IMG/VR virus record: IMGVR_UViG_648276647_000007
Source: a virus
Taxonomy: Duplodnaviria > Heunggongvirae > Uroviricota > Caudoviricetes
Direction: 5' to 3' (one strand)
DNA: 36,541 nucleotides
This document shows positions 1 to 36,541 of the stretch, in pieces. Position 1 is the stretch's first letter. Each line of letters starts with the position of its first letter. The notes beneath the pieces are model-generated. The model ran no database searches. It worked only from the letters and a program-made list of their open reading frames with translations, and had not been told where the DNA came from. The translations under genes were made by a program, and so were the position numbers.

Positions 1-1
1 A

Positions 2-2248: not shown

Positions 2249-2258
2249 CAAAATTGAA

Positions 2259-2287
2259 TGGGGAGGGCTTAGCCCTCCCTCTTTTTA
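2259..2287. terminator. GC-rich hairpin (gggagggc-tta-gccctccc) with T-tract, between convergent genes; probable bidirectional intrinsic terminator
   Basis: Perfect 8-bp inverted repeat at 2261-2279 followed by ctttttac; lies between the adhesin stop (2248) and the esterase stop (2285). Confidence 0.6.
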
Positions 2288-3328
2288 CAGGTTAGCGTTT
2301 GGGTTTTGTTGTTGGGGAGCTGTTTTTATAGGCGCTCCCAGGTTTTTAGTAAACCACTCAACGACTCTGTTTATAATAATTGGCTGATACCATGTCTTAT
2401 CGCCATGCTCGGCCCCTTCTACCAGCACGTACTCAGCGTTATCACCGTTCTTCTTCAACATCCTGAATAGTTTGGCGCTTTGCTCAGGTGAAACCAGAGT
2501 GTCTTTGCTACCATGCATAATAAGAAATGGGGGTTTTACTCCTTTCATATGTCCGATTGGACTGGCGTTTAGCGCTTTTTCTTTTGACGCTGTGATGGGG
2601 GCTCCCGCAAAATTTCTGAATGCAGGGCCATTGATCATTAAGGCTTCGGTTACGGCAGGAGAGCGATGAACCTCCTGCACTGATTCAGGGAACCCCTCGC
2701 CAATATTCAACAAGTCAGAAATCCCATAAAGTGTGGCAACTGCCTGAACATCTGAGGATTGCTGAAGAAAGTCACCTTTATCAAAGGTTTTGTCACCATT
2801 TGTAGTTCCCATCATCTGGGCAAGCCATCCACCGGCAGAGTCACCCAGAACTCCGATTCTTTGAGGATCAATCCCATAATTGCTGGCATGCTCTCTCAGG
2901 TAACGTATTGCAGCTTTTCCATCCTCAACTGGTGCTGGAAATGTATCAGGAATTGTTCTGTATTCTACAGCGGCCACAACAAAACCAGCTTCTGCCAGAG
3001 CCATTCTCATTTCAATAAATTTGTCATGTTCAGAAGACATGAATCCGCCGCCGGGATAATAAATAATGGCTGGTTTTAAATCATTTGTTCGCGGGACAAG
3101 AACTGACATGTGAAGCTGTCTGACAGAACGAGTTCCTTTTATCTGGGAATAAACAACATCACCAATGAGATCGACCTGGTTTCTGGTCGGTGAAACACTA
3201 ATGATATCTGCACCCGGGGTGTAACCAGGAAGATTAGTCTGGACAGGTGTTGCACAACTCCCGACCGACATGGCCATTGACATACCATACAATAGTGTTG
3301 CAGATGATAATATCTTGTTAATTTTCAT
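2285..3328 (-). CDS. Lipoprotein alpha/beta-hydrolase (esterase/lipase family)
   Basis: 347 aa ORF. N-terminal signal peptide with lipobox (MSVGSC), oxyanion-hole-like YYPGGGF motif and nucleophile-elbow GDSAGG motif of hormone-sensitive-lipase-type esterases. Confidence 0.7.
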   Translation of the reverse strand: MKINKILSSATLLYGMSMAMSVGSCATPVQTNLPGYTPGADIISVSPTRNQVDLIGDVVYSQIKGTRSVRQLHMSVLVPRTNDLKPAIIYYPGGGFMSSEHDKFIEMRMALAEAGFVVAAVEYRTIPDTFPAPVEDGKAAIRYLREHASNYGIDPQRIGVLGDSAGGWLAQMMGTTNGDKTFDKGDFLQQSSDVQAVATLYGISDLLNIGEGFPESVQEVHRSPAVTEALMINGPAFRNFAGAPITASKEKALNASPIGHMKGVKPPFLIMHGSKDTLVSPEQSAKLFRMLKKNGDNAEYVLVEGAEHGDKTWYQPIIINRVVEWFTKNLGAPIKTAPQQQNPNANL

Positions 3329-6493: not shown

Positions 6494-6956
6494 TCCTCAG
6501 CGTAAAGCCTTCCTCGATATGTTGGCGTGGTCAGAAGGAACGGATAACGGGCGACAACCGACACGTAACCACGGTTATGATGTTATTGTTGGCGGCGAAC
6601 TGTTTACTGATTACTCCGATCACCCTCGCAAACTTGTCACGCTACACCCCAAACTCAAATCAACAGCCGCCGGACGTTATCAGCTTCTTTCACGCTGGTG
6701 GGATGCTTACCGTAAACAGCTTGGTTTGAAAGACTTCTCCCCCAAAAGCCAGGACGCAGTGGCATTACAGCAGATTAAAGAGCGTGGTGCTTTACCGATG
6801 ATTGATCGCGGTGATATCCGTCAGGCAATCGACCGTTGCAGCAATATCTGGGCTTCACTGCCGGGCGCTGGTTATGGTCAGTTCGAGCATAAGGCTGACA
6901 GCCTGATTGCAAAATTCAAAGAAGCTGGCGGAACGCTCAGAGAGAGTGAGGTATGA
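6480..6956 (+). CDS. R: Endolysin R (lambda-type lytic transglycosylase)
   Basis: 158 aa; near-identical to my recollection of lambda R ([20 protein letters not shown]...[21 protein letters not shown]...). Confidence 0.9.
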
Positions 6957-7405
6957 GCAGAATAACCGCGATTATCTCCGCTCTGGTTATCTGCGTCATC
7001 GTCTGCCTTTCATGGGCGGTTAATCATTACCGCGATAACGCGATTACCTACAAAGCCCAGCGCGACAAAAATGCCAGAGAACTGACGCTGGCGAACGCGG
7101 CAATTACTGACATACAGATGCGTCAGCGTGATGTTGCTGCGCTCGATGCAAAATACACGAAGGAGTTAGCTGATGCGAAAGCTGAAAATGATGCTCTGCG
7201 TGATGATGTTGCCGCTGGTCGTCGTCGGTTGCACATCAAAGCAGTCTGTCAGTCAGTGCGTGAAGCCACCACCGCCTCCGGCGTGGATAATGCAGCCTCC
7301 CCCCGACTGGCAGACACCGCTGAACGGGATTATTTCACCCTCAGAGAGAGGCTGATCACTATGCAAAAACAACTGGAAGGAACCCAGAAGTATATTAATG
7401 AGTAG
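6953..7405 (+). CDS. Rz: Spanin inner-membrane subunit Rz (i-spanin)
   Basis: 150 aa with N-terminal TM segment and coiled-coil body, start overlapping the R stop; lambda Rz-like. Confidence 0.85.
7173..7355 (+). CDS. Rz1: Spanin outer-membrane lipoprotein subunit Rz1 (o-spanin), embedded in Rz in the +1 frame
   Basis: 60 aa; lipobox LVVVGC and proline-rich [15 protein letters not shown] segment as in lambda Rz1; wholly inside Rz. Confidence 0.8.
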
Positions 7406-15442: not shown

Positions 15443-16468
15443 ATGTCGATGTACACAACCGCCCAGCTGCTGGCGGCAAATGAGCAGAAATTTAAGTTTG
15501 ATCCGCTGTTTCTGCGTCTCTTTTTCCGTGAGAGCTATCCCTTCACCACGGAGAAAGTCTATCTCTCACAAATTCCGGGACTGGTAAACATGGCGCTGTA
15601 CGTTTCGCCGATTGTTTCCGGTGAGGTTATCCGTTCCCGTGGCGGCTCCACCTCTGAATTTACGCCGGGATATGTCAAGCCGAAGCATGAAGTGAATCCG
15701 CAGATGACCCTGCGTCGCCTGCCGGATGAAGATCCGCAGAATCTGGTGGACCCGGCTTACCGCCGCCGTCGCATCATCATGCAGAACATGCGTGACGAAG
15801 AGCTGGCCATTGCTCAGGTCGAAGAGATGCAGGCAGTTTCTGCCGTGCTTAAGGGCAAATACACCATGACCGGTGAAGCCTTCGATCCGGTTGAGGTGGA
15901 TATGGGCCGCAGTGAGGAGAATAACATCACGCAGTCCGGCGGCACGGAGTGGAGCAAGCGTGACAAGTCCACGTATGACCCGACCGACGATATCGAAGCC
16001 TACGCGCTGAACGCCAGCGGTGTGGTGAATATCATCGTGTTCGATCCGAAAGGCTGGGCGCTGTTCCGTTCCTTCAAAGCCGTCAAGGAGAAGCTGGATA
16101 CCCGTCGTGGCTCTAATTCCGAGCTGGAGACAGCGGTGAAAGACCTGGGTAAAGCGGTGTCCTATAAGGGGATGTATGGCGATGTGGCCATCGTCGTGTA
16201 TTCCGGACAGTACGTGGAAAACGGCGTCAAAAAGAACTTCCTGCCGGACAACACGATGGTGCTGGGGAACACTCAGGCACGCGGTCTGCGCACCTATGGC
16301 TGCATTCAGGATGCGGACGCACAGCGCGAAGGCATTAACGCCTCTGCCCGTTACCCGAAAAACTGGGTGACCACCGGCGATCCGGCGCGTGAGTTCACCA
16401 TGATTCAGTCAGCACCGCTGATGCTGCTGGCTGACCCTGATGAGTTCGTGTCCGTACAACTGGCGTAA
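15443..16468 (+). CDS. E: Major capsid protein E
   Basis: 341 aa from MSMYTTAQLLAANEQKF...; lambda gpE. Confidence 0.95.
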   Translation: MSMYTTAQLLAANEQKFKFDPLFLRLFFRESYPFTTEKVYLSQIPGLVNMALYVSPIVSGEVIRSRGGSTSEFTPGYVKPKHEVNPQMTLRRLPDEDPQNLVDPAYRRRRIIMQNMRDEELAIAQVEEMQAVSAVLKGKYTMTGEAFDPVEVDMGRSEENNITQSGGTEWSKRDKSTYDPTDDIEAYALNASGVVNIIVFDPKGWALFRSFKAVKEKLDTRRGSNSELETAVKDLGKAVSYKGMYGDVAIVVYSGQYVENGVKKNFLPDNTMVLGNTQARGLRTYGCIQDADAQREGINASARYPKNWVTTGDPAREFTMIQSAPLMLLADPDEFVSVQLA

Positions 16469-18262: not shown

Positions 18263-19003
18263 ATGCCTGTACCAAATCCAGTAATGCCGGTGAAAGGGGC
18301 CGGGACCACCCTGTGGGTTTATAAGGGGAACGGTGACCCTTATGCGAACCCGCTTTCAGACGTTGACTGGTCGCGTCTGGCTAAAGTTAAAGACCTGACG
18401 CCCGGCGAACTGAGCGCTGAGTCCTATGACGACAGCTATCTCGATGATGAAGATGCGGACTGGACTGCGACCGGGCAGGGGCAGAAATCTGCCGGAGATA
18501 CCAGCTTCACGCTGGCGTGGATGCCCGGAGAGCAGGGGCAGCAGGCGCTGCTGGCGTGGTTTAATGAAGGGGATACCCGTGCCTATAAAATCCGCTTCCC
18601 GAACGGCACGGTCGATGTGTTCCGCGGCTGGGTCAGCAGTATCGGTAAGGCGGTGACGGCGAAGGAAGTGATCACCCGCACGGTGAAAGTCACCAACGTG
18701 GGACGTCCGTCGATGGCAGAAGATCGCAGCACGGTGACGGCGACAACCGGCATGACGGTGACACCCGCCAGTGCTTCCGTAGTGAAAGGGCAGAGCACTA
18801 CGCTGACCGTGGCATTCCAGCCGGAGGGCGCAACCGACAAGAGCTTCCGTGCGGTGTCTGCGGATAAAACAAAAGCCACCGTGTCGGTCAGCGGTATGAC
18901 CATCACCGTGAACGGCGTTGCTGCAGGCAAGGTCAACATTCCGGTTGTATCCGGTAATGGTGAGTTTGCTGCGGTTGCAGAAATCACCGTCACCGCCAGT
19001 TAA
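18263..19003 (+). CDS. V: Major tail tube protein V (with C-terminal Ig-like domain)
   Basis: 246 aa from [22 protein letters not shown]...; lambda gpV. Confidence 0.9.
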
Positions 19004-19018
19004 TCCGGAGAGTCAGCG

Positions 19019-19441
19019 ATGTTCCTGAAAACCGAATCATTTGAATATAACGGCGTGACCGTCACGCTTTCTGAACTGTCAGCCCTGCAGCGTATTGAGC
19101 ATCTTGCCCTGATGAAACGGCAGGCAGAACCGGCGGGATCCGACAGCAACCGGCAGGTTACTGTGGAAGACGTCATCAGAACCGGCGCGTTTCTGGTGGC
19201 GATGTCCCTGTGGCATAACCATCCGAAGAAGACGCAGATGCCGTCCATGAATGAAGCCGTTAAACAGATTGAGCAGGAAGTGCTTACCACCTGGCCCACA
19301 GAGGCAATTTCTCATGCTGAAAACGTGGTGTACCGGCTGTCCGGTATGTATGAGTTTGTGGTGAATAATGCCCCCGAACAGGCAGAGGACGCCGGGCCTG
19401 CAGAGCCTGTTTCTGCGGGAAAGTGTTCGACGGTGAGCTGA
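19019..19441 (+). CDS. G: Tail assembly chaperone G
   Basis: 140 aa; lambda gpG. Confidence 0.9.
   Translation: MFLKTESFEYNGVTVTLSELSALQRIEHLALMKRQAEPAGSDSNRQVTVEDVIRTGAFLVAMSLWHNHPKKTQMPSMNEAVKQIEQEVLTTWPTEAISHAENVVYRLSGMYEFVVNNAPEQAEDAGPAEPVSAGKCSTVS
19417..19423 (+). promoter_or_regulatory. Programmed -1 ribosomal frameshift slippery heptamer G_GGA_AAG (G to G-T)
   Basis: Heptamer GGGAAAG sits in the G frame about 6 codons before the G stop; the -1 frame continues as the T ORF (19423-19857). This is the conserved lambda G/GT mechanism. Confidence 0.8.
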
Positions 19442-19857
19442 GTTTTGCCCTGAAACTGGCGCGTGAGATGGGGCGACCCGACTGGCGTGCCATGCTTGCC
19501 GGGATGTCATCCACGGAGTATGCCGACTGGCACCGCTTTTACAGTACCCATTATTTTCATGATGTTCTGCTGGATATGCACTTTTCCGGGCTGACGTACA
19601 CCGTGCTCAGCCTGTTTTTCAGCGATCCGGATATGCATCCGCTGGATTTCAGTCTGCTGAACCGGCGCGAGGCTGACGAAGAGCCTGAAGATGATGTGCT
19701 GATGCAGAAAGCGGCAGGGCTTGCCGGAGGTGTCCGCTTTGGCCCGGACGGGAATGAAGTTATCCCCGCTTCCCCGGATGTGGCGGACATGACGGAGGAT
19801 GACGTAATGCTGATGACAGTATCAGAAGGGATCGCAGGAGGAGTCCGGTATGGCTGA
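19423..19857 (+). CDS. T: T portion of the G-T frameshift fusion tail assembly chaperone
   Basis: -1 frame ORF of 144 aa directly following the slippery site; no independent ATG or RBS, consistent with expression only as a G-T fusion. Confidence 0.8.
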   Translation: MFDGELSFALKLAREMGRPDWRAMLAGMSSTEYADWHRFYSTHYFHDVLLDMHFSGLTYTVLSLFFSDPDMHPLDFSLLNRREADEEPEDDVLMQKAAGLAGGVRFGPDGNEVIPASPDVADMTEDDVMLMTVSEGIAGGVRYG

Positions 19858-22410
19858 ACCGGTAGGCGATCTGGTCGTTGATTTGAGTCTGGATGCGGCC
19901 AGATTTGACGAGCAGATGGCCAGAGTCAGGCGTCATTTTTCCGGTACGGAAAGTGATGCGAAAAAAACAGCGGCAGTCGTTGAACAGTCGCTGAGCCGAC
20001 AGGCGCTGGCTGCACAGAAAGCGGGGATTTCCGTCGGGCAGTATAAAGCCGCCATGCGTATGCTGCCTGCACAGTTCACCGACGTGGCCACGCAGCTTGC
20101 AGGCGGGCAAAGTCCGTGGCTGATCCTGCTGCAACAGGGGGGGCAGGTGAAGGACTCCTTCGGCGGGATGATCCCCATGTTCAGGGGGCTTGCCGGTGCG
20201 ATCACCCTGCCGATGGTGGGGGCCACCTCGCTGGCGGTGGCGACCGGTGCGCTGGCGTATGCCTGGTATCAGGGCAACTCAACCCTGTCCGATTTCAACA
20301 AAACGCTGGTCCTTTCCGGCAATCAGGCGGGTCTGACGGCAGATCGTATGCTGGTCCTGTCCAGAGCCGGGCAGGCGGCAGGGCTGACGTTTAACCAGAC
20401 CAGCGAGTCACTCAGCGCACTGGTTAAGGCGGGGGTAAGCGGTGAGGCTCAGATTGCGTCCATCAGCCAGAGTGTGGCGCGTTTCTCCTCTGCATCCGGC
20501 GTGGAGGTGGACAAGGTCGCTGAAGCCTTCGGGAAGCTGACCACAGACCCGACGTCGGGGCTGACGGCGATGGCACGCCAGTTCCATAACGTGACGGCGG
20601 AGCAGATTGCGTATGTTGCTCAGTTGCAGCGTTCCGGCGATGAAGCCGGGGCATTGCAGGCGGCGAACGAGGCCGCAACGAAAGGGTTTGATGACCAGAC
20701 CCGCCGCCTGAAAGAGAACATGGGCACGCTGGAGACCTGGGCAGACAGGACTGCGCGGGCATTCAAATCCATGTGGGATGCGTGCTGGATATTGGTCGTC
20801 CTGATACCGCGCAGGAGATGCTGATTAAGGCAGAGGCTGCGTTTAAGAAAGCAGACGACATCTGGAATCTGCGCAAGGATGATTATTTTGTTAACGATGA
20901 AGCGCGGGCGCGTTACTGGGATGATCGTGAAAAGGCCCGTCTTGCGCTTGAAGCCGCCCGAAAGAAGGCTGAACAGCAGAGTCAACAGGACAAAAATGCG
21001 CAGCAGCAGAGCGATACCGAAGCGTCACGGCTGAAATATACCGAAGAGGCGCAGAAGGCTTACGAACGGCTGCAGACGCCGCTGGAGAAATATGCCGCCC
21101 GTCAGGAAGAACTGAATAAGGCCCTGAAAGACGGAAAAATCCTGCAGGCAGATTACAACACGCTGATGGCGGCAGCGAAAAAGGACTATGAAACGACACT
21201 GAAAAAGCCGAAGCAGTCCGGCGTGAAGGTGTCTGCGGGCGATCGTCAGGAAGACAGTGCTCATGCTGCCCTGCTGACGCTTCAGGCTGAACTCCGGACG
21301 CTGGAGAAGCATGCCGGAGCAAATGAGAAAATCAGCCAGCAGCGCCGGGATTTGTGGAAGGCGGAGAGTCAGTTCGCGGTACTGGAGGAGGCGGCGCAAC
21401 GTCGCCAGCTGTCTGTACAGGAGAAATCCCTGCTGGCGCATAAAGATGAGACGCTGGAGTACAAACGCCAGCTGGCTGCACTTGGCGACAAGGTTACGTA
21501 TCAGGAGCGCCTGAACGCGCTGGCGCAGCAGGCGGATAAATTCGCACAGCAGCAACGGGCAAAACGGGCCGCCATTGATGCGAAAAGCCGGGGGCTGACT
21601 GACCGGCAGGCAGAACGGGAAGCCACGGAACAGCGCCTGAAGGAACAGTATGGCGATAATCCGCTGGCGCTGAATAACGTCATGTCAGAGCAGAAAAAGA
21701 CCTGGGCGGCTGAAGACCAGCTTCGCGGGAACTGGATGGCAGGCCTGAAGTCCGGCTGGAGTGAGTGGGAAGAGAGCGCCACGGACAGTATGTCGCAGGT
21801 AAAAAGTGCAGCCACGCAGACCTTTGATGGTATTGCACAGAATATGGCGGCGATGCTGACCGGCAGTGAGCAGAACTGGCGCAGCTTCACCCGTTCCGTG
21901 CTGTCCATGATGACAGAAATTCTGCTTAAGCAGGCAATGGTGGGGATTGTCGGGAGTATCGGCAGCGCCATTGGCGGGGCTGTTGGTGGCGGCGCATCCG
22001 CGTCAGGCGGTACAGCCATTCAGGCCGCTGCGGCGAAATTCCATTTTGCAACCGGAGGATTTACGGGAACCGGCGGCAAATATGAGCCAGCGGGGATTGT
22101 TCACCGTGGTGAGTTTGTCTTCACGAAGGAGGCAACCAGCCGGATTGGCGTGGGGAATCTTTACCGGCTGATGCGCGGCTATGCCACCGGCGGTTATGTC
22201 GGTACACCGGGCAGCATGGCAGACAGCCGGTCGCAGGCGTCCGGGACGTTTGAGCAGAATAACCATGTGGTGATTAACAACGACGGCACGAACGGGCAGA
22301 TAGGTCCGGCTGCTCTGAAGGCGGTGTATGACATGGCCCGCAAGGGTGCCCGTGATGAAATTCAGACACAGATGCGTGATGGTGGCCTGTTCTCCGGAGG
22401 TGGACGATGA
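19850..22410 (+). pseudogene. H: Tail tape-measure protein H, interrupted by a 1-nt frameshift near 20781-20784
   Basis: Two ORFs (19850-20824 and 20773-22410, different frames) together span the length and position of lambda H (853 aa). The upstream frame reads ...FKSMWDA then CWILVVLIPRRRC-stop; the other frame continues GCVLDIGRPDTAQEML..., so restoring one base after gatgcg would rejoin them. Confidence 0.8.
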
Positions 22411-22736
22411 AGACCTTCCGCTGGAAAGTGAAACCCGGTATGGATGTGGCTTCGGTCCCTTCTGTAAGAAAGGTGCGCTTTGGTGATGGCTATTCTCAGC
22501 GAGCGCCTGCCGGGCTGAATGCCAACCTGAAAACGTACAGCGTGACGCTTTCTGTCCCCCGTGAGGAGGCCACGGTACTGGAGTCGTTTCTGGAAGAGCA
22601 CGGGGGCTGGAAATCCTTTCTGTGGACGCCGCCTTATGAGTGGCGGCAGATAAAGGTGACCTGCGCAAAATGGTCGTCGCGGGTCAGTATGCTGCGTGTT
22701 GAGTTCAGCGCAGAGTTTGAACAGGTGGTGAACTGA
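22407..22736 (+). CDS. M: Tail tip protein M
   Basis: 109 aa; lambda gpM. Confidence 0.9.
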   Translation: MKTFRWKVKPGMDVASVPSVRKVRFGDGYSQRAPAGLNANLKTYSVTLSVPREEATVLESFLEEHGGWKSFLWTPPYEWRQIKVTCAKWSSRVSMLRVEFSAEFEQVVN

Positions 22737-23434
22737 TGCAGGATATCCGGCAGGAAACACTGAATGAATGCACCCGTGCGGAGCAGTCGGCCAGCGTGGT
22801 GCTCTGGGAAATCGACCTGACAGAGGTCGGTGGAGAACGTTATTTTTTCTGTAATGAGCAGAACGAAAAAGGTGAGCCGGTCACCTGGCAGGGGCGACAG
22901 TATCAGCCGTATCCCATTCAGGGGAGCGGTTTTGAACTGAATGGCAAAGGCACCAGTACGCGCCCCACGCTGACGGTTTCTAACCTGTACGGTATGGTCA
23001 CCGGGATGGCGGAAGATCTGCAGAGTCTGGTCGGCGGAACGGTGGTCCGGCGTAAGGTTTACGCCCGTTTTCTGGATGCGGTGAACTTCGTCAACGGAAA
23101 CAGTTATGCCGATCCGGAGCAGGAGGTGATCAGCCGCTGGCGCATTGAGCAGTGCAGCGAACTGAGCGCGGTGAGTGCCTCCTTTGTACTGTCCACGCCG
23201 ACGGAAACGGATGGCGCTGTTTTTCCGGGACGTATCATGCTGGCCAACACCTGCACCTGGACCTATCGCGGTGACGAGTGCGGTTATAGCGGTCCGGCTG
23301 TCGCGGATGAATATGACCAGCCAACGTCCGATATCACGAAGGATAAATGCAGCAAATGCCTGAGCGGTTGTAAGTTCCGCAATAACGTCGGCAACTTTGG
23401 CGGCTTCCTTTCCATTAACAAACTTTCGCAGTAA
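22736..23434 (+). CDS. L: Tail tip protein L
   Basis: 232 aa with C-terminal Cys cluster; lambda gpL. Confidence 0.9.
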   Translation: MQDIRQETLNECTRAEQSASVVLWEIDLTEVGGERYFFCNEQNEKGEPVTWQGRQYQPYPIQGSGFELNGKGTSTRPTLTVSNLYGMVTGMAEDLQSLVGGTVVRRKVYARFLDAVNFVNGNSYADPEQEVISRWRIEQCSELSAVSASFVLSTPTETDGAVFPGRIMLANTCTWTYRGDECGYSGPAVADEYDQPTSDITKDKCSKCLSGCKFRNNVGNFGGFLSINKLSQ

Positions 23435-23582
23435 TCCCATGACACAGACAGAATCAGCGATTCTGGCGCACGCCCGGCGATGTGCGCCAGCGGAGTCGTG
23501 TGGCTTCGTGGTGAGAACGCCGAAGGGGGAAAGATATTTTCCCTGCGTGAATATCTCCGGTGAGCCGGAGGCGTATTTCCGG

Positions 23583-24182
23583 ATGTCGCCGGAGGACTGG
23601 CTGCGGGCAGAGATGCAGGGTGAGATTGTGGCGCTGGTCCACAGCCACCCCGGTGGTCTGCCCTGGCTGAGTGAGGCTGACAGGCGGCTGCAGGTGCAGA
23701 GCGATTTGCCGTGGTGGCTGGTCTGCCGGGGTGAGATTCATAAATTCCGCTGTGTGCCGCATCTTACCGGGCGGCGCTTTGAGCACGGGGTGACGGACTG
23801 TTACACGCTGTTCCGGGATGCTTATCATCTGGCGGGGATTGAGATGCCGGATTTTCATCGCGGGGATGACTGGTGGCGTCACGGTCAGAATCTCTATCTG
23901 GATAATCTGGAGGCCACAGGGCTGTATCAGGTGCCGTTGTCATCAGCACAACCGGGCGATGTGCTGCTGTGCTGTTTTGGTTCATCGGTGCCGAATCATG
24001 CCGCCATTTACTGTGGTGATGGCGAGCTGCTGCACCATATTCCTGAACAACTGAGCAAACGAGAGAGGTATACCGACAAATGGCAGCGACGCACACACTC
24101 CCTCTGGCGTCACCGGGCATGGCACGCATCTGCCTTTACGGGGATTTGCAACGATTTGGCCGCCGCATCGATCTTCGTGTGA
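23583..24182 (+). CDS. K: Tail tip assembly protein K (JAB/MPN + NlpC/P60-like)
   Basis: 199 aa from MSPEDWL..., containing the HSHP metalloprotease-like motif. The frame is open upstream to 23397, so a longer N-terminus is possible. Confidence 0.8.
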   Translation: MSPEDWLRAEMQGEIVALVHSHPGGLPWLSEADRRLQVQSDLPWWLVCRGEIHKFRCVPHLTGRRFEHGVTDCYTLFRDAYHLAGIEMPDFHRGDDWWRHGQNLYLDNLEATGLYQVPLSSAQPGDVLLCCFGSSVPNHAAIYCGDGELLHHIPEQLSKRERYTDKWQRRTHSLWRHRAWHASAFTGICNDLAAASIFV

Positions 24183-24751
24183 AAACGGGGGCTGAAGCTA
24201 TCCGGGCGCTGGCCACACAGCTCCCGGCGTTTCGTCAGAAACTGAGCGACGGCTGGTATCAGGTACGGATTGCCGGGCGGGATGTCAGCACGTCCGGATT
24301 AACGGCGCAGTTACATGAGACTCTGCCTGATGGCGCTGTGATTCATATTGTTCCCAGAGTCGCCGGGGCCAAGTCAGGTGGTGTATTCCAGATTGTCCTG
24401 GGAGCTGCCGCCATTGCCGGATCATTCTTTACTGCCGGAGCCACCCTTGCAGCATGGGGGGCAGCCATTGGGGCCGGTGGTATGACCGGCATCCTGTTTT
24501 CTCTCGGTGCCAGTATGGTGCTCGGTGGTGTGGCGCAGATGCTGGCACCGAAAGCCAGAACTCCCCGCACACAGACAACGGATAACGGCAAACAGAACAC
24601 CTATTTTTCCTCACTGGATAACATGGTTGCTCAGGGCAATGTTTTGCCTGTTCTGTACGGTGAAATGCGTGTGGGGTCGCGGGTGGTTTCTCAGGAGATC
24701 AGCACGGCAGACGAAGGGGACGGTGGTCAGGTTGTGGTGATTGGTCGCTGA
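24080..24751 (+). CDS. I: Tail tip assembly protein I
   Basis: 223 aa with glycine/alanine-rich hydrophobic C-terminal half; lambda gpI; overlaps the K 3' end. Confidence 0.9.
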   Translation: MAATHTLPLASPGMARICLYGDLQRFGRRIDLRVKTGAEAIRALATQLPAFRQKLSDGWYQVRIAGRDVSTSGLTAQLHETLPDGAVIHIVPRVAGAKSGGVFQIVLGAAAIAGSFFTAGATLAAWGAAIGAGGMTGILFSLGASMVLGGVAQMLAPKARTPRTQTTDNGKQNTYFSSLDNMVAQGNVLPVLYGEMRVGSRVVSQEISTADEGDGGQVVVIGR

Positions 24752-24769
24752 TGCAAAATGTTTTATGTG

Positions 24770-24793
24770 AAACCGCCTCCGGGCGGTTTTATC
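24770..24793 (+). terminator. Hairpin aaaccgcc-tccg-ggcggttt + T-rich tract between I and J
   Basis: Perfect 8-bp stem then ttatcgttt; likely partial terminator or attenuator. Confidence 0.4.
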
Positions 24794-24808
24794 GTTTATG
24801 GAGCATGA

Positions 24809-28210
<3,402 letters not shown>

Positions 28211-28228
28211 ATTTTATAACCCAGATAC

Positions 28229-28254
28229 GGGCGCCAGAAATGGCGCCTTTTTTA
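28229..28254 (+). terminator. Intrinsic terminator after J (ggcgcc-agaaat-ggcgcc + T7)
   Basis: Perfect 6-bp GC stem followed by ttttttta immediately after the J stop. Confidence 0.7.
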
Positions 28255-28277
28255 TTGCAGAAAAGCGAGAGGTAATT

Positions 28278-28877
28278 ATGCGTAAATTATGTGCTGTTAT
28301 TCTGTCCGCAGTAGTCTTGCTGGTTGCCGCTGGTACGCCAGCGAGCGCAGCAGAGCATCAGTCCACACTAAGCGCCGGGTATCTTCAGACCCATACTGAT
28401 ATGCCAGGCAGTGATGACCTGAAGGGCATTAACGTGAAATACCGTTATGAATTTACGGACACGCTGGGGCTGGTGACGTCATTCAGTTATGCCAATGCCA
28501 AAGATGAGCAAAAAACGCATTACAGCGATACCCGCTGGCATGAAGATTCCGTGCGTAACCGCTGGTTCAGCATGATGGCGGGGCCATCAGTACGCGTGAA
28601 TGAATGGTTCAGTGCTTATGCGATGGCGGGTATGGCTTACAGCCGTGTGTCGACCTTCTCCGGGGATTATCTCCGCGTAACTGACAACAAGGGGAAAACG
28701 CACGATGTGCTGACCGGAAGTGATGACGGTCGCCACAGCAACACGTCTCTGGCGTGGGGGGCTGGCGTGCAGTTTAACCCGACCGAATCCGTGGCCATTG
28801 ACCTTGCTTATGAAGGTTCCGGCAGTGGTGACTGGCGCACTGACGGTTTCATCGTGGGTGCCGGTTATAAATTCTGA
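28278..28877 (+). CDS. lom: Lom outer-membrane protein (Ail/Lom/OmpX family)
   Basis: 199 aa with signal peptide and C-terminal ...GSGDWRTDGFIVGAGYKF beta-barrel terminus, as in lambda Lom. Confidence 0.85.
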   Translation: MRKLCAVILSAVVLLVAAGTPASAAEHQSTLSAGYLQTHTDMPGSDDLKGINVKYRYEFTDTLGLVTSFSYANAKDEQKTHYSDTRWHEDSVRNRWFSMMAGPSVRVNEWFSAYAMAGMAYSRVSTFSGDYLRVTDNKGKTHDVLTGSDDGRHSNTSLAWGAGVQFNPTESVAIDLAYEGSGSGDWRTDGFIVGAGYKF

Positions 28878-28903
28878 TTAGCCAGGTAACACAGTGTTAT
28901 GAC

Positions 28904-28931
28904 AGCCCGCCGGTTCAGGCGGGCTTTTTTG
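28904..28931 (+). terminator. Intrinsic terminator after lom (agcccgcc-ggttc-aggcgggct + T6)
   Basis: 8-9 bp GC-rich stem followed by tttttt. Confidence 0.7.
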
Positions 28932-28935
28932 TGGA

Positions 28936-30693
28936 GTGGATATGGTAGCAGTAAAAATCTCAGGTGTGCTGAAAGATGGTGCGGGAAAACCAATACAGAA
29001 CTGCACTATTCAACTGAAGGCAAAGCGTAACAGCACCACGGTACTGGTGAACACGGTGGCATCTGAAAATCCTGATGAAGCCGGGCGTTACAGTATGGAT
29101 GTTGAGTATGGCCAGTACAGCGTCACCCTGCTGGTTGAAGGTTTTCCGCCTTCACATGCCGGGACCATTACCGTCTATGAAGGTTCCAGACCAGGTACGC
29201 TGAATGATTTTCTCGGTGCCATGACGGAAGATGATGTCATGCCGGAGGCATTGCGTCGTTTTGAGGAAATGGTGGAAGAAGCGGCACGCAACGCCGAAGC
29301 CGCCTCTCAGAGCGCAGCGGCGGCAAAGAAATCCGAAACTGCATCGGCAGCAAGCCAGACAGCAGCTAAAGCAAGTGAAGACGCAGCCAGAGAGTATGCA
29401 AGTCAGGCAGCAGAGCCGTATAAATATGTCTTACAGCCACTGCCTGATGTGTGGATACCGTTTAACGATTCACTGGATATGATTACGGGTTTTTCGCCAT
29501 CTTATAAAAAGATAGTTATTGGTGACGATGAAATAACAATGCCAGGCGACAAGATTGTTAAGTTTAAACGTGCTTCAACAGCAACGTATATTAATAAGTC
29601 CGGCCAACTCAAGCTTGCTGAAGTTGACGAACCGCGATTTGAGCGCGATGGCTTATTGATTGAAGGACAGAGGACAAATTATCTGAGGAACTCAAATAAA
29701 CCAGACTCATGGACTGTTCATTCCGCACTGAATAAAACATTTGGCACTGATAAACAGGGGTTCAATTATGCCACGGTGACACCCACGGAAAGTATAGTGG
29801 GAACAACAGGTGGCTATACTGTGCATGGTGTGGTTGCAGCAGACAGATTCCCGCTGGCAAGTGGTGAATGTTTCACTTTTTCGTGCCGGGTTAAAGGCGC
29901 TAAAGCACGATGCAGGTTAAGAGTTTCAGTTATTATTGGTGGAACAGATACCTTCTCTGCTGACTCTTATCTTGATCTGGATACCCGGATCGCAACAGTA
30001 AGCGGTAATACATCCCTTATAACAGCCAAAGCTGAACAACAGGGCGAGTGGACCTACTATGAGGCCACTTATACAGCTAATACGGACATTGATACCGTTA
30101 ACTGTGCTTTTTATATGACAAATAAAATAAGTAATGAGACATTCTATGATGACTCAACATTAACCATGACGACGCCGCAAATTGAACTGGGCAATACGGC
30201 ATCGTCATTTATTGTAACTACAATGCCAACAACACGCGCAAGTGATGTAGTTACTATCCCATCGCAGAATAACCTGTCAACACGGCCTTTTACGGTATTG
30301 TGCGAAGTAAGCAGGAACTGGAGTACACCGCCCAATGTTGCGCCAAGGATATTTGATGTTGGAGGGCACAGTATTGATGATAATTATTTATCGCTGGGGT
30401 TTGTTGCAACAGGAAAGATAAGCGCCAACGTAGGAATGGTTCAGCCACAAATTGCCTCAGATGGAGAAAGGTTCATTGTGGGTGTGAGAGCTAAATCTGA
30501 TTTATCAGTAAATGCAATATGCAATGGTAATTATACAACAAACCTTAATGGTAAAATATTTGGAGTTACAGCAACATCGTACCGGTTTGGTGGGCAGACC
30601 GCAGCAGGAACGCGTCATTTGTTTGGACACATCAGAAATTTCAGAGTCTGGTTTAAAGAATTAAATGACAGGCAAATCAAGGAGGCAGTATGA
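28936..30693 (+). CDS. stf: Side tail fibre protein with lambda Stf-like N-terminus and divergent C-terminal receptor-binding domain (possibly LamG/concanavalin-like)
   Basis: First ~150 aa (MAVKISGVLKDGAGKPIQNCTIQLKAKRNSTT...SMDVEYGQYSV...) resemble lambda Stf; the rest lacks the long Ala/Ser-rich shaft and ends in a G.IRNFRVW...L.DRQI-like motif. Confidence 0.7.
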   Translation: MDMVAVKISGVLKDGAGKPIQNCTIQLKAKRNSTTVLVNTVASENPDEAGRYSMDVEYGQYSVTLLVEGFPPSHAGTITVYEGSRPGTLNDFLGAMTEDDVMPEALRRFEEMVEEAARNAEAASQSAAAAKKSETASAASQTAAKASEDAAREYASQAAEPYKYVLQPLPDVWIPFNDSLDMITGFSPSYKKIVIGDDEITMPGDKIVKFKRASTATYINKSGQLKLAEVDEPRFERDGLLIEGQRTNYLRNSNKPDSWTVHSALNKTFGTDKQGFNYATVTPTESIVGTTGGYTVHGVVAADRFPLASGECFTFSCRVKGAKARCRLRVSVIIGGTDTFSADSYLDLDTRIATVSGNTSLITAKAEQQGEWTYYEATYTANTDIDTVNCAFYMTNKISNETFYDDSTLTMTTPQIELGNTASSFIVTTMPTTRASDVVTIPSQNNLSTRPFTVLCEVSRNWSTPPNVAPRIFDVGGHSIDDNYLSLGFVATGKISANVGMVQPQIASDGERFIVGVRAKSDLSVNAICNGNYTTNLNGKIFGVTATSYRFGGQTAAGTRHLFGHIRNFRVWFKELNDRQIKEAV

Positions 30694-30968
30694 AAGATTT
30701 AACTTTGAAATTTCCTGGTAACAGAGAGTTTAAATCCTTCCTGTCATCTCTTGACTGGGAGGAGGATGAAGACCTCCAGAATAAACTGTTAGTCGATGAA
30801 ATTGGTTTCACCTACACAGAAACAGGGGTAACAGAAGAGGGAGAACCTGTCTGTGTCCGGAATGACGGTTATTTTGTCAACATTCGCATTCTTGATGACT
30901 TGTTTGATGTTTCTGTATTCTCTGATTATGTCGTGGAGCTGGAAACACCGCTTCGGGAATGGAGCTGA
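30690..30968 (+). CDS. Hypothetical acidic protein (92 aa), translationally coupled to the tail fibre gene
   Basis: ATGA overlap with the stf stop; sits where a tail fibre assembly gene would be expected but is smaller than typical Tfa proteins. Confidence 0.45.
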   Translation: MKDLTLKFPGNREFKSFLSSLDWEEDEDLQNKLLVDEIGFTYTETGVTEEGEPVCVRNDGYFVNIRILDDLFDVSVFSDYVVELETPLREWS

Positions 30969-30980
30969 AAGGAGGAAATA

Positions 30981-31274
30981 ATGGATATAAGCCCCTTACT
31001 TCATGCACTTTGTGCTGTGGCTGCGCAGATACTGGTTGGTCTTTTTACCGGAAACTGGGCTTACGGAGCGATAGCCGGTTGTACGTTCTTCATTGCGCGT
31101 GAACATACCCAGGCAGAATATCGCTGGATTGAAATGTTCGGGCATGGCAAGCGAATGAATATGCCGTGGTGGGGCGGTTTTGATCCGCGAGCTTGGGATG
31201 TGGCAAGCCTGATGGATTTTGCTGTGCCGGTGGTGGCGTGTCTGCTGGTCTGGCTGTTGGTTAATCGTGGGTGA
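30981..31274 (+). CDS. Hypothetical small membrane protein (97 aa, two predicted TM helices)
   Basis: Strong RBS (gaaaggaggaaataATG); hydrophobic N- and C-terminal segments flanking a W/R-rich loop. Confidence 0.45.
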   Translation: MDISPLLHALCAVAAQILVGLFTGNWAYGAIAGCTFFIAREHTQAEYRWIEMFGHGKRMNMPWWGGFDPRAWDVASLMDFAVPVVACLLVWLLVNRG

Positions 31275-31365
31275 AAAAAGGTGAGCTGTATATGCAACGG
31301 AGGAAGAAACCCCGTTGCTGGAAGCCAGGAAAAAGTATCGGGTGTTGCTGTCCTCGGATGTTGTG

Positions 31366-32223
31366 CTAATTGGGTGATAACAGATCCTGTGTATGGGAGT
31401 TTCCCTTTTTGCGTGCGTTGATGCTGGTAACGGCAAACGTCATGATGAACAAAACCGCGAATAAGACGACAATCGTCGGAGCTGGTGCGCTGTCGATAAA
31501 AAAGGACAACCAGACACCAGTCATTGACACTATTACCGATATGCCAGTCGCCAGTAGGAGCGCAATATGAAAGCGTTGTGTCAGGAGTACCGCAATGGCG
31601 CCAGGCGCAATGAGCAGAGAAATGGAGAGAATGATACCTACCGCTTTCAGCGTCGCCACAATGGTCAGAGAGACCATGCACAGCAGCCCATAATGCAGCC
31701 ATCTCGTATGCAAACCGCTTACCTGCGCCTGTTGATAATCAAAGCTGAACAGCAAAAAATCCCGCCATTTTACGCTAATAACAAGTGTAACCAGCCCGGC
31801 AATAATCATCGTCTGGATTATATCGCCGATGGTTATCCCGAGCATGTCGCCGAAAAGAATATGGTCAAGATGTACGTCTGGTTTGACTGCAATATACAAG
31901 ATCAGACCTGCGGCAAACATGCCAGAAAAAACAATCCCCATCACTGTATCTTGCTTGATTCGGCTGTTGTCTTTCAGGTATCCCGTCGCCACCGCACAGA
32001 ATACTCCGGCGACGAATGCCCCTGTAGCCAAAGGTAACCCCAGAATCCAGGCAAGCACGATGCCAGGAAAAACCGCATGACTCATCGCGTCACCCATCAG
32101 TGCCCAACCTTTCAGGACCAGAAAGACCGACAGCAGCGCACAGGGTATGGAAACTACCAGTGAAATCAGCAGTGCGTGACTCATAAAGGTGAACTGCAGT
32201 GGCTCCAGTAATAATGCCATCAT
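31366..32223 (-). CDS. sitD: Mn/Fe ABC transporter permease SitD (ABC-3 family)
   Basis: 285 aa polytopic membrane protein, last gene of a four-gene minus-strand operon with overlapping start/stop codons; paralogous to the adjacent permease. Confidence 0.8.
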   Translation of the reverse strand: MMALLLEPLQFTFMSHALLISLVVSIPCALLSVFLVLKGWALMGDAMSHAVFPGIVLAWILGLPLATGAFVAGVFCAVATGYLKDNSRIKQDTVMGIVFSGMFAAGLILYIAVKPDVHLDHILFGDMLGITIGDIIQTMIIAGLVTLVISVKWRDFLLFSFDYQQAQVSGLHTRWLHYGLLCMVSLTIVATLKAVGIILSISLLIAPGAIAVLLTQRFHIALLLATGISVIVSMTGVWLSFFIDSAPAPTIVVLFAVLFIMTFAVTSINARKKGNSHTQDLLSPN

Positions 32224-33077
32224 GAGCGATCCTCCAGCGCCTTATGCGCACGCCGACGATTTGCCAAAAGCCCATGGGTGGGCGCAAAGACAAATGCTAA
32301 AAGAAACAGCAGTGTCTGCGCCACCACGATGATTCCACCTGTCGCGCCGTCCAGAAAGTAACTGACCCACGCGCCGAGGAAACTGGTTACACTGCCAATA
32401 GTTACAGCAATCATGAGCAGGCGGGGAAAACGATCGGTTAACAACCATGCTGTTGCACCGGGAGTCACCACCAGACAGATCACCAGAAAGGCACCAACCG
32501 TTTGCAGCGCCGCAACGGTCGAAACCGACAGCAGGGTGAAGAAGAGGAGTTTTAATCTGCCCGGATGCAATCCAATAGCACGGGCGTGATTCTCGTCGAA
32601 AAAGGTCACCATAAGATCTTTCCATTTGAAAAAAAGCACGATGATCGAGAGAATGCCAATGATAGTGAGTTGCAGGATATCCGCCGGATCGATTGCCAGA
32701 ATATTGCCCAGGACGATGGTCTGAATGTTCACAGATGTCGGGTTCAATGACACCATAAACAGCCCCAGGCCAAAAAAGGACGAGAAGATCAGACCGATGA
32801 TGGCATCTTCTTTTAAGCGGGTGCGTTGGTTAAGAAACAGCATGCTGCCCGCAGCCAGTCCGCCGGAAAAGAAGGCTCCCAGAGAAAACGGAAGCCCCAG
32901 CATATATGCCCCCGCAACACCCGGGACAATAGAGTGCGACAACGCATCGCCAATCAGCGACCAGCCTTTTAGCATCAGATAGCATGACAGGAAAGCGCAG
33001 AGACCGCCGACCATCGCCGAGACCCACATCGCATTGAGCATATATTCATAGCTGAAGGGTTCCAGTAGCACGTTCAT
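32220..33077 (-). CDS. sitC: Mn/Fe ABC transporter permease SitC (ABC-3 family)
   Basis: 285 aa polytopic membrane protein; operon position. Confidence 0.8.
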
Positions 33078-33901
33078 CTTTCTTCCCTCTGCACCGCTGA
33101 CGGTCGATGAGCCACAAAAGGGCGTTCATCGTCAGTAATAATGCTTTCTTCCGAGCCGTTAAGTGTGACATGGCGCAGTACGCCGCTAAAAGCCAGCTCT
33201 AGGTTCTCGGCTGTAAAAGTGGTGTCTGTCGGCCCGCTTGCCAGGACGGTGCCTTTGACCATGACCGTATAATCGCAAAATGTCGTGACGGATCCGAGAT
33301 TGTGTGTTGAGACAAGCATCGTTTTGCCTTCCGCGCGTAACTCCCTCAACAGGCTGATGATTTTGGCTTCGGTTTTCACATCAACGCCAGTAAAAGGTTC
33401 ATCCAGCAGGATCACATCACCCTGCTGTGCAATCGCTCTCGCCAGAAAGACGCGTTTCTTTTGTCCACCGGAAAGCTCGCCGATTTGTCGATGGCGAAAA
33501 TTCACCATATCGACACGTTCCAGCGCATCGGTGACAATTTGACGATCCCTCTTTTTGGCGATACGCAACATACCCATATGCCCATAGCGGCCCATCATCA
33601 CCACATCTTCCACCAGTACAGGAAATGACCAGTCAACATCTTCTGACTGAGGGACGTAGGCAACCAGGTTTTTCTGTAACGCCTGTCGCGTGGGAATACC
33701 CAGAACAGATATCTTTCCGCTGGTCAGACGCACAAATCCCATAATCGCTTTAAACAACGTCGATTTTCCGGAACCGTTTACCCCAACCAGAGCGGCAATA
33801 GATCCACTTGGTACTGTGAAGGATGCATCGCGCAGTGCTGTGTGCCCGTTACGCCAGGTGACAGTAACATCATTAACGACAATGCCTGCAGATTGCATCA
33901 T
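33074..33901 (-). CDS. sitB: Mn/Fe ABC transporter ATP-binding protein SitB
   Basis: 275 aa; Walker [13 protein letters not shown] signature LSGGQ, Walker B ILLDEP. Confidence 0.85.
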
Positions 33902-34815
33902 TATTTCTCCCTTTTCCCAGCTTTAATTCCCTGTACCAGCGTACTGGTAGTAACCTTAAGAAGGTCGATATACGTCGGTACCGGGCCGTTTTCTGTGCTC
34001 AGGGAATCGACATAGAGCACACCGCCGTAGTGTGCGCCGGTTTCACGCGCAACCTGACGCGCTGGTTTATCGGAAATCGTACTCTCGCTAAAGACTGCCG
34101 GGATATGATTTTTCTTAACTATATCAACAACCTTACGTACCTGCTGCGGTGTTCCTTGTTGATCGGCATTAATCGGCCACAGATAAAGCTCTTTTAGCCC
34201 CAAATCGCGTGCGAGATAAGAAAAAGCCCCTTCACTGGTGACCATCCATCGCTGATTCTCAGGGAGTTCCGTAATCTGCTTACGCAGGGGGGCAAGGATT
34301 TGGGTAATCTTGGCTTTATAAGTATCGGCATTGCGTTGGTAGGTTTGTGCATTTGCCGGATCGTATTTTATCAACGCATCACGAATATTATCGACGTAAA
34401 TCAGAGCATTATCTGGCGACATCCATGCATGGGGGTTAGGTTTGCCCTCATAGGGTCCTTCGGTGATCCCTACAGGCGTCACACCCGAAGAGACAATTAC
34501 TTCTGGAACCCCATTGAGATGCTGGTAAAAGCGTTGGAACCACAATTCCAGATTCATACCATTGGCAAGAATCAGTTGTGCCCCCTGCGCACGTTTAATA
34601 TCGCCAGGGGTAGGCTGATACTCATGAATTTCTGCACCAGGCTTGGTTATGGATGAGACTTCTGCAGCATCTCCCGCCACGTTTTTGGCCATATCCGCGA
34701 TGATGGTAAATGTTGTAATGACCTTGAATTTTTCAGTTGCACTTGCCTGAAATGCGATCGAGCAGGTGAGTGCGAGCCCCCCCAAGAGCATGGTTACTTT
34801 TTTTATCGAGTGCAT
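33901..34815 (-). CDS. sitA: Periplasmic Mn/Fe-binding protein SitA (TroA/cluster-9 substrate-binding protein)
   Basis: 304 aa with signal peptide; first gene of the operon. Sit/Yfe/Mnt family by motif recall; exact orthologue name unverified. Confidence 0.8.
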
Positions 34816-34847
34816 AATTTAGTACCTATAGTGAGCAAAATTAGAAC

Positions 34848-34869
34848 AAACATAGCAACGGCTATGTTT
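34848..34869 (-). promoter_or_regulatory. Candidate MntR operator (palindrome aaacatagc-aacg-gctatgttt) upstream of sitA
   Basis: Perfect 9-bp inverted repeat matching the enterobacterial MntR-box consensus as I remember it, about 35-55 bp upstream of the sitA start. Confidence 0.5.
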
Positions 34870-34888
34870 TATAGCACAGCCTATACAA

Positions 34889-34909
34889 AATGAAAATGAT
34901 TATCATTAG
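34889..34909 (-). promoter_or_regulatory. Candidate Fur box (aaaatgattatcattagc) upstream of sitA
   Basis: 13 of 14 match to the AATGATAATCATT core of the Fur consensus GATAATGATAATCATTATC. Confidence 0.5.
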
Positions 34910-35513
34910 CAGCTTTGAGGCCCAAAACAGGGATTAGGTTGTTTCCTGCTGGCGACGCGTTATTGAGGAAAAAAGTAAGGCAGCTAGTAGGCTTTGAAAT
35001 AACGTTTTGCGGTTGGCTGATGCAATTTCGAGAGTGCATGTATTGAATGATTTCTAGCCGTTACTGATTTTCGTATTTTTTGTATGGGAGGATTTGCACC
35101 TCCCCCCACCGAGCCTCCATGACTTTACTCCACTGTCTCTAGGGCTGCTGTGTGCCAGGAGCGGAAGCAGGGGGGCCAGAGACTCCTTAAAAGTTGATAG
35201 CTCGTTTTGCAGGGAGACTTACACGGTAAGCGTTATTCCGAAGAGCTTAAAATTGAAGCAGTCAAACGGGTTGTTGAGCGTGTTTATGCGCTGCCATCTG
35301 ATTAATCGACGGAAGCAGTTCCGTTTGGTCTATGATGCAGTTGTCCGGCAGGCGCTCTGTGACGCAAAAGAACGATAGGAGTAGCATTGAAGTGAACGAG
35401 GTTATGCTTGTCTTATATTATCCTCTATTTTAAAAACATCAGCTGGTTGTGTAAGAGTTTTTATTGTTTTATCTTGTTGACTTTGCTTTTATGAAAACAG
35501 AGTGATTGATACA

Positions 35514-36041
35514 ATGAAAACCTTAAGTGGGAAAGAGTTTAGGAAATTATTTAATCGTTATGAGACAGGATTCTATCTAAGTGAGTTTGAATACTTAAAG
35601 GACTTTGATCCTTTGTTTCCTGAATGCGTAGGGAAAGAATTAAAGTTGGGTTATAAACGAAAAGTTGATGTATGGTGCGAAGAGGATGCTGCGCTATATG
35701 CAGAATTTATAGCTACAAAAGAAAGGCTGAAAAGAGGCCGGTTAATCCTAAAAATAAACCAAGTGTGGTCGCGTGTATATCCTGCTTATATTTATGCAAT
35801 TGAAGAAAGAATAAATGTCAGGGCAAAGGGGAGAGAGTCATTTAAGTATGAAACTGTGCAAGAAAAACAATGTAAACTTTCCATAATGTTAGATGGTCTG
35901 AAAGACCTTGAATGTGAAATAGCTATGATTTCAAGTGAGTTTGAAATTGAAAAACACTCTATGCACTATTTTTATATGATTTTTGATATTGAACGCTATA
36001 TAAATGACTGCAGTTACTTTGTTTTTTCTGGGCTTTGTTGA
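35514..36041 (+). CDS. Hypothetical protein in an AT-rich island; 3' end apparently replaced by the IS end
   Basis: ORF 35502-36041 (first ATG at 35514). Region is visibly AT-rich relative to the rest of the window. The last codons and the TGA stop (36039-36041) lie inside the IS terminal repeat starting at 36031. Confidence 0.4.
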   Translation: MKTLSGKEFRKLFNRYETGFYLSEFEYLKDFDPLFPECVGKELKLGYKRKVDVWCEEDAALYAEFIATKERLKRGRLILKINQVWSRVYPAYIYAIEERINVRAKGRESFKYETVQEKQCKLSIMLDGLKDLECEIAMISSEFEIEKHSMHYFYMIFDIERYINDCSYFVFSGLC

Positions 36042-36541
36042 ATAAATCGAACTTTTGCTGAGTTGAAGGATCAGATCACGCATCTTCCCGACAACGCAGA
36101 CCATTCCGTGGCAAAGCAAAAGTTCAAAATCACCAACTGGTCCACCTACAACAAAGCCCTCATCAACCGTGGCTCCATAACTTTCTGGCTGGACGATGAA
36201 GCTATTCAGGCCTGGTATGAGTCGGCAACGCCTTCATCACGGGGAAGACCTCAGCGCTATTCTGATCTCGCCATCACCACCGTTCTGGTCATTAAACGCG
36301 TGTTCAGGCTGACCCTGCGGGCTGCACAGGGTTTTATTGATTCCATTTTTACACTGATGAATGTTCCGTTGCGCTGCCCGGATTACACCAGTGTCAGTAA
36401 GCGCGCAAAGTCGGTTAATGTCAGTTTCAAAACGTTCACCCGGGGTGAAATCGCGCATCTGGTGATTGATTCCACCGGGCTGAAGGTCTCTGGTGAAGGC
36501 GAATGGAAAGTCAAAAAACACGGACAAAGAACGCCGTCGTA
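36031..36541 (+). mobile_element. IS903-group (IS5 family) insertion sequence, left end and 5' part; continues beyond the window
   Basis: Terminal sequence GGCTTTGTTGAATAAATCGAACTTTTGCTGAGTTGAAGGATCAGATCACGCATCTTCCCGACAACGCAGACC... matches the IS903/Tn903 end as I remember it. Confidence 0.75.
36107..36541 (+). CDS. IS903-group transposase, N-terminal 145 codons (3'-partial at window edge)
   Basis: Frame open from GTG 36107 to the window end, translating to VAKQKFKITNWSTYNKALINRGSITFWLDDEAIQAWYESATPSSRGRPQRYSDLAITTVLVIKRVFRLTLRAAQGF...; absent from the ORF track because no stop is reached. Confidence 0.75.

Follow-up and report, generated by a model that had tools for sequence, protein, structure and literature searches.

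The lambda tape-measure protein gpH serves as a ruler for the assembly of the surrounding gpV tube and is also a component of the tail-tip initiator (PMC10721106, PMC12617516). Within the tail tip, its C-terminal helix (residues 818-849) rests on the gpI tripod (PMC10721106, PMC12617516). After tail assembly, gpH is processed to gpH*, which comprises approximately residues 1-710, and a hydrophobic segment has been predicted at residues 116-140 (PMC10721106; PMC12617516). Another tail gene of lambda, stf, is disrupted by a frameshift resulting from laboratory adaptation (PMC10721106). Here, we analyzed a DNA stretch of 36,541 nucleotides (nt) from the IMG/VR record IMGVR_UViG_648276647_000007, hereafter referred to as the window, which comes from a lambda-like prophage of Escherichia coli M605 integrated at the icd locus and carrying iss/bor, lom, and sitABCD. 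Gene H of this prophage is divided between two reading frames by the absence of a single G, and we consider it probable that this reflects a recent, strain-private loss-of-function deletion that was actually present in the sequenced DNA. Such an event is of a known kind, and the split is already visible in the GenBank annotation, where each half of H has an entry of its own, EGI17326.1 and EGI17327.1, under the name "minor tail protein H" (scaffold GL883901.1 of E. coli M605, GCA_000176555.2; exact-protein match).

The interrupted gene H and its intact relatives

The window contains two plus-strand open reading frames (ORFs) for H in different frames, one at 19850-20824 (324 amino acids, aa) and the other at 20773-22410 (545 aa), with an overlap of 52 nt. 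A tblastn comparison with lambda gpH matched residues 1-312 to 19850-20785 in frame 2 (99.4% identity) and residues 311-853 to 20779-22407 in frame 1 (98.7% identity), in line with the preliminary description of this DNA, which had reported H as two ORFs in different frames. Homology to gpH thus extends over its full length, and in place of a single uninterrupted ORF of approximately 853 codons the gene occupies two frames separated by a 1-nt gap. The native 5' part (codons 1-311, 19850-20782, plus strand) is nucleotide-identical to H of E. coli EC958, and Pfam family PF06791 (TMP_2) is on record for its 324-aa product. The native 3' part (codons 312-853, 20782-22410, plus strand) continues in the -1 frame, and PF09718 (Tape_meas_lam_C) is on record for its product. 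The placement of H between G/T and M is that of lambda, the order Z-U-V-G-T-H-M-L-K-I-J being collinear in both.

The lesion itself consists of one G missing from a GG doublet at 20781/20782 on the plus strand (GCGGTG to GCGTG), by which the ancestral GATGCGGTGCTGG became GATGCGTGCTGG; the junction of the split gene reads catgtgggatgcgtgctggatatt. In alignments to EC958, Rb-23, 1002W03, and TUM14697, the gap appeared as CATGTGGGATGC-GTGCTGG in the window versus CATGTGGGATGCGGTGCTGG in these strains. It was the sole gap across the homologous prophage relative to EC958, 1002W03, TUM14697, and four contigs from other records (L029, L030, L031, and L033). Aligning the break region to lambda H and to related genomes yielded this one 1-nt gap, with the frame intact in the relatives. 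The preliminary description had located the break at approximately 20781-20784 and had noted that the site was neither a homopolymer nor a slippery heptamer; the alignment gap falls within that interval, and apart from the GG doublet the sequence is as it was characterized. When the G was put back, the gene measured 2562 nt (853 codons) and was 100% identical at the nucleotide level to the intact H of EC958, which encodes WP_000840216.1. In the interrupted gene, the 5' fragment ends out of frame at 20783-20824 on the plus strand, comprising 13 aberrant codons (CWILVVLIPRRRC) followed by TGA at 20822-20824. Three plus-strand codons are candidate starts of the 3' ORF, namely GTG at 20773, which is the mechanical ORF start, GTG at 20782, and ATG at 20818.

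The deletion is private to one strain record, on a background near-identical to that of relatives with an intact gene. An 81-nt query centered on the break matched 3020 of the 5426 complete E. coli genomes, yet none of these matches was exact, and the top matches all spanned 82 nt. No copy of the deleted allele was found either when collections of metagenome and viral contigs were scanned for exact 31-mers. When the whole 2561-nt gene was used as a megablast query, lambda and its relatives among the phage records matched with 99.2% identity over a subject span of 2562 nt, and the best matches among the complete E. coli genomes were sequence type 131 (ST131) strains, reported as "100.0%" with spans of 2562 nt. 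The tape-measure protein WP_000840216.1 is intact in EC958, Rb-23, 1002W03, and TUM14697. Contigs sharing the Lom allele of M605 (L029, L030, L031, and L033, standing for approximately 20 contigs) all encode an 853-aa H, and three of them (L029, L030, and L033) differ from window positions 18279-36030 (17.7 kb) by one single-nucleotide polymorphism (SNP) in addition to the H deletion. The only other record of the 324-aa product was a 3344-nt Logan contig from run SRR024152, which is 100% identical to 19551-22894, deletion included. The break in H belongs to one genome record and not to the prophage at large, which is widespread and has an intact H in thousands of E. coli genomes.

The same deletion had been suspected in GCA_018491025.1 (L006) from an identical 542-aa C-terminal ORF, and this candidate was ruled out by the intact GCGGTG at the site. 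In positions 1-850 of L006 (JAHBJO010000092.1), the 3' part of H, from approximately 20751 onward, abuts a piece of the portal gene in inverted orientation; this unrelated junction represents either a rearrangement or a draft misassembly.

Mutation, sequencing error, or recoding

We infer that the deletion was present in the DNA of M605 rather than only in its reads, and several lines of evidence point in this direction. Two assemblers, that of the depositor and that of Logan, yielded the same deleted sequence. The H deletion was the sole indel relative to EC958 in 30.9 kb of alignment, and all 1508 homopolymer runs of at least 3 nt in length, 139 of which measured at least 5 nt, were equal in length to their EC958 counterparts. 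Among these longer tracts is a G7 run within H itself (20137-20143), which is in frame, lies 645 nt 5' of the deletion, and is identical in all relatives. In a comparison of 454 and PacBio data for E. coli EC958, 15 single-nucleotide indels were found in 5.1 Mb, and those attributed to 454 all lay in tracts of at least 5 nt (PMC4134206); an erroneous consensus at a doublet would therefore be atypical. A pyrosequencing artefact would be expected in a homopolymer of at least 5 nt and in the company of further indels nearby, whereas the site is a GG doublet and represents the one gap in 30.9 kb. The lone indel and the agreeing homopolymers together argue against such an artefact. The same prophage copy also carries other genuine lesions, an Rz nonsense codon that is shared with other strains and an insertion sequence (IS) that is private to M605, and therefore erosion of this copy is under way.

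The strongest rival explanation attributes the missing G to an under-called GG, an error of sequencing or of the consensus, in which case M605 would have an intact H and a complete tail module. The considerations that favor an error also weigh against a genuine mutation. The deletion is confined to one old draft and one run that probably belongs to M605, and it is absent from the 3020 complete genomes with the site, from the nearest relatives, from approximately 20 contigs with the M605 Lom allele, and from the metagenome and viral contig collections. With only 1 SNP in 17.7 kb separating M605 from its closest relatives, very little evolutionary time would have been available, and a real indel is a priori rare. 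Moreover, consensus errors classically show themselves as a 1-nt indel unique to one draft of the 2009 era, the scaffold contains N gaps at repeats that are typical of a draft, and restoring a single base is sufficient to make H perfectly identical to that of EC958. The E. coli drafts that the Broad produced in those years were presumably 454-based; a literature search for E. coli M605 yielded no relevant paper. The agreement between assemblers must also be read with care, as SRR024152 probably contributed to the M605 assembly, in which case the Logan contig would represent different software applied to the same data. At 3.3 kb, that contig is also short, suggesting modest depth.

Markers elsewhere in the prophage did not connect the run to the strain. 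SitA I173 and Rz Q151* are not private to M605, being shared by more than 100 index blocks, so neither serves as a marker linking SRR024152 to M605. The IS-truncated 179-aa protein described below was found only in the NCBI record of M605 and is uninformative with regard to SRR024152; its absence from the contigs of the run is no surprise, given that contigs built from short reads are interrupted at IS elements.

On the other side, an error must be reconciled with the identical output of the two assemblers and with the complete lack of other indels in approximately 31 kb, where all 139 runs of at least 5 nt, including the G7 run in H, are correct. The 454 benchmark, with approximately 14 platform indels in 5.1 Mb, all in runs of at least 5 nt (PMC4134206), translates into well below 0.02 expected doublet errors in a 36-kb window. 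We regard an error as unlikely. The preliminary description had offered either a genuine 1-nt deletion or an assembly error; the absence of one nucleotide that lambda and all of the relatives possess was upheld, and as to its origin, a true mutation is the probable choice, with the error explanation remaining the doubtful one.

Functional use of the two frames fared far worse. The true programmed frameshift of the tail module, that of G/GT, is located upstream of H, where the conserved -1 slippery heptamer GGGAAAG (19417-19423) is intact. For a -1 shift to rescue H, it would have to occur after the preceding stop of the 3' frame (20692) and before the stop of the first ORF (20824), and our scan of 20695-20824 detected no X_XXY_YYZ heptamer in the zero frame; the sole heptamer of this type in the first ORF, GGGGGGG at 20137, lies beyond the interval in which rescue is possible. 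No notable stimulatory RNA structure was found at 20740-20900, as the minimum free energy of this segment (-47.5 kcal/mol, z = -0.87) was matched or surpassed by 35 of 200 shuffled sequences, indicating a fold that is neither stable nor unusual. The two-frame arrangement was present in none of the 3020 complete genomes with the site, and the close relatives all encode an 853-aa H; this lack of conservation across thousands of homologues is the opposite of what a recoding signal would produce. With neither a slippery heptamer nor an unusual RNA structure at the locus, and with no conservation of the split, programmed recoding was rejected, and the preliminary description had been correct in setting it aside.

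Translational coupling is the remaining way in which both frames might be used. The TGA of the first ORF at 20822 overlaps an in-frame ATG of the 3' frame at 20818 (ATGCTGA), an arrangement able to allow coupling, and a low-level re-initiation reading was considered because of this overlap. Re-initiation at ATG 20818 after termination at TGA 20822 would give a 530-aa C-terminal gpH that keeps the tip-binding helix (lambda residues 818-849; PMC10721106, PMC12617516), resulting in a proportionally shorter tail or, together with the 324-aa N-terminal fragment, in a two-piece ruler. Were this to occur, the re-initiated 530-aa gpH would amount to a natural version of the classical ruler-shortening experiments. 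However, no properly spaced Shine-Dalgarno sequence was found upstream of GTG 20773, GTG 20782, or ATG 20818, and the AGGAG motif abuts ATG 20818 with zero spacing. Re-initiation of this type is highly improbable, and we regard as equally improbable the broader proposal that the two-frame H is functional, whether through a -1 shift in 20695-20824 yielding full gpH or through termination-reinitiation at AUGCUGA yielding both halves as a split or shortened ruler.

Expected effect on the tail and the surrounding prophage

If the missing G is a real mutation, as we consider probable, one G of the GG doublet at codon 311/312 of H would have been lost recently and in M605 only. Translation from the H start would then yield 311 native residues followed by 13 missense residues and a stop, and the remaining 542 codons, including those for the C-terminal helix that anchors gpH to gpI, would lie in the -1 frame without a proper initiation signal. 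A break at residue 311 would thereby cut off the N-terminal part from all of the elements that hold the ruler in the tip. Functional tails would not be formed, and the expected products would be non-infectious filled heads, barring the provision of H in trans or recombinational repair with another lambdoid phage. A tail-less phenotype of the M605 prophage copy, which the preliminary description had put forward for the case of a real break, would thus be expected from the known role of gpH. As in an eroding prophage, the disrupted gene is an essential one, the essential role of gpH being taken from the literature (PMC10721106, PMC12617516). A real deletion would leave the sit/iss-carrying icd prophage of M605 tail-defective and able to spread only with H from another lambdoid phage or after recombinational repair, whereas an error would mean that EGI17326.1 and EGI17327.1 are artefacts. 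Either way, no new mechanism is involved, and the value of the observation lies mostly in annotation hygiene.

The other morphogenetic genes from Nu1 to J (Nu1, A, W, B, C, D, E, FI, FII, Z, U, V, G, T, M, L, K, I, and J) are collinear with lambda, full length, and 89-100% identical at the amino acid level. These include the tail assembly chaperone genes G and T (19019-19857, plus strand), both full length relative to lambda, and gene M (22407-22736, plus strand), which lies directly 3' of H, is intact, and encodes a protein with 100% identity to lambda M. The match to lambda Stf, the non-essential side tail fibre, is confined to the first 110 aa, and tblastn with lambda proteins found no tfa in the window. 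The earlier statement that all remaining lambda morphogenetic genes are full length accordingly applies from Nu1 to J, with Stf and tfa as exceptions. The side tail fibre gene (28936-30693) is chimeric and is annotated in relatives as two pseudogene pieces. It is followed on the minus strand by the sitDCBA iron/manganese transporter operon (31366-34815), and this cargo occupies the tail-fibre end of the lambda map.

Comparison with EC958 provided the wider context of the prophage. The homologue at icd in that strain has a left arm with int, xis, exo, bet, gam, and kil, a cI-like S24 repressor, cro-like and cII-like genes, and O and P; next come two morons encoding an inverse autotransporter and an alpha/beta hydrolase, the nin region, Q, the lysis genes, and iss/bor. 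Its right part contains complete head and tail modules, lom, a broken stf, and sitABCD adjoining the icd remnant. The window opens with non-phage genes, and the possibility that it represents a remnant with a deleted left arm is improbable in view of EC958, in which the corresponding region is directly preceded by int, xis, exo/bet/gam, the repressor, O, and P. The window begins inside the autotransporter moron, to the right of P, so that the left arm of the M605 prophage lies beyond it; the left arm in EC958 is complete. The two morons between P and the nin region occupy window positions 1-3328 and positions 26118-31463 of another sequence (L007). The invasin-like inverse autotransporter varies from 1183 to 1421 aa across strains, presumably through the number of Big_1/Invasin_D3 repeats, and the second moron encodes the alpha/beta hydrolase, a widespread protein.

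Two further lesions were identified in the M605 copy. The Rz spanin gene (6953-7405, plus strand) ends 3 codons earlier than in EC958 through a C-to-T change at 7403 (Q151*). The truncation of Rz (rzpD) removes the residues QCR, including the C-terminal cysteine, and the allele occurs in approximately 168 index blocks and is shared by a sublineage that includes M605 and TUM14697, the latter as a complete genome. At 36031-36541 on the plus strand, beside the prophage, lies an insertion of an IS5-family (IS903-like) element with transposase families PF13737 and PF01609; homology to all relatives stops at 36030. This insertion, found in M605 only, shortens a hypothetical gene of 256 aa, located between sitA and the icd remnant, to 179 aa (35502-36041), and the window ends inside the IS, 1-2 nt before a 426-N scaffold gap.

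Other strains carry different lesions in the same prophage. A satellite-like island of approximately 10.7 kb lies within capsid gene E in TUM14697 (L028, 21438-32157) and in 1002W03 (L005, 5602-16320), at a site corresponding to approximately 15672-15687 of the window. The island encodes a tyrosine integrase, an Icd-like protein, a primase, a single-stranded DNA-binding protein (SSB), its own lambda-type major capsid and decoration proteins, and a TIR-domain protein. Approximately 16 nt are duplicated at its junctions, the tail genes of the host prophage are intact, and gene E of M605 is intact. Such a satellite, which encodes a capsid and resides in the capsid gene of a prophage that could act as its helper, may merit separate attention. 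In three other strains (L010, L015, and L017), J adjoins the holin gene, most head and tail genes are deleted, and several IS elements replace the O/repressor region; these are independent and far more advanced decay states of the same prophage.

The differing lesions across strains fit ordinary strain-by-strain prophage erosion, of which the H frameshift is at most one event. The preliminary description had gone further, viewing the break in H as fitting a domesticated element that is retained because of its cargo genes. This view gains little from the comparisons, in which the deletion is private, the EC958 copy is essentially complete, and H is intact in EC958, Rb-23, 1002W03, and TUM14697. 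Because the deletion is private and the relatives retain an intact H, the loss of H is a strain-specific event or an artefact, and not a property of the element.

Comparison with known systems

The closest counterpart of the interrupted gene is lambda gpH (853 aa; NP_040595.1; PF06791 + PF09718), which is the same gene in the same place between G/T and M. The lambda gene is continuous, whereas H of M605 is interrupted at codon 311/312 and does not encode the 853-aa product. The -1 frameshift of lambda G/GT likewise involves overlapping ORFs in the 0 and -1 frames of the tail module; however, G/GT uses the slippery sequence GGGAAAG and is conserved across lambdoid phages, and the H split has neither a slippery site nor conservation. 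The homopolymer indels of pyrosequencing resemble the present case in that a single-base indel in a 2009-era draft produces an apparent frameshift unique to one assembly. They differ from it in that the run here is of 2 nt, the longer runs are correct, and a second assembler reproduces the deletion.

A frameshift in the stf gene of laboratory lambda (lambda PaPa) likewise split a tail gene into two annotated ORFs, orf-401 and orf-314, and Hendrix and Duda reportedly described this lesion in 1992 as a single-base deletion. The stf gene is dispensable for plaque formation and its lesion became fixed in a laboratory lineage, whereas H is essential and its lesion is found in one draft genome. Erosion and pseudogenization of prophages in enterobacterial genomes are said to have been documented by Bobay et al. 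in PNAS in 2014, and the present prophage resembles that pattern in carrying independent lesions by strain, including the H frameshift, the Rz nonsense codon, the IS insertion, the satellite in E, and the head-tail deletions. Within this pattern, the split in H has nothing distinctive, and it would constitute one more example of prophage erosion if the deletion is real.

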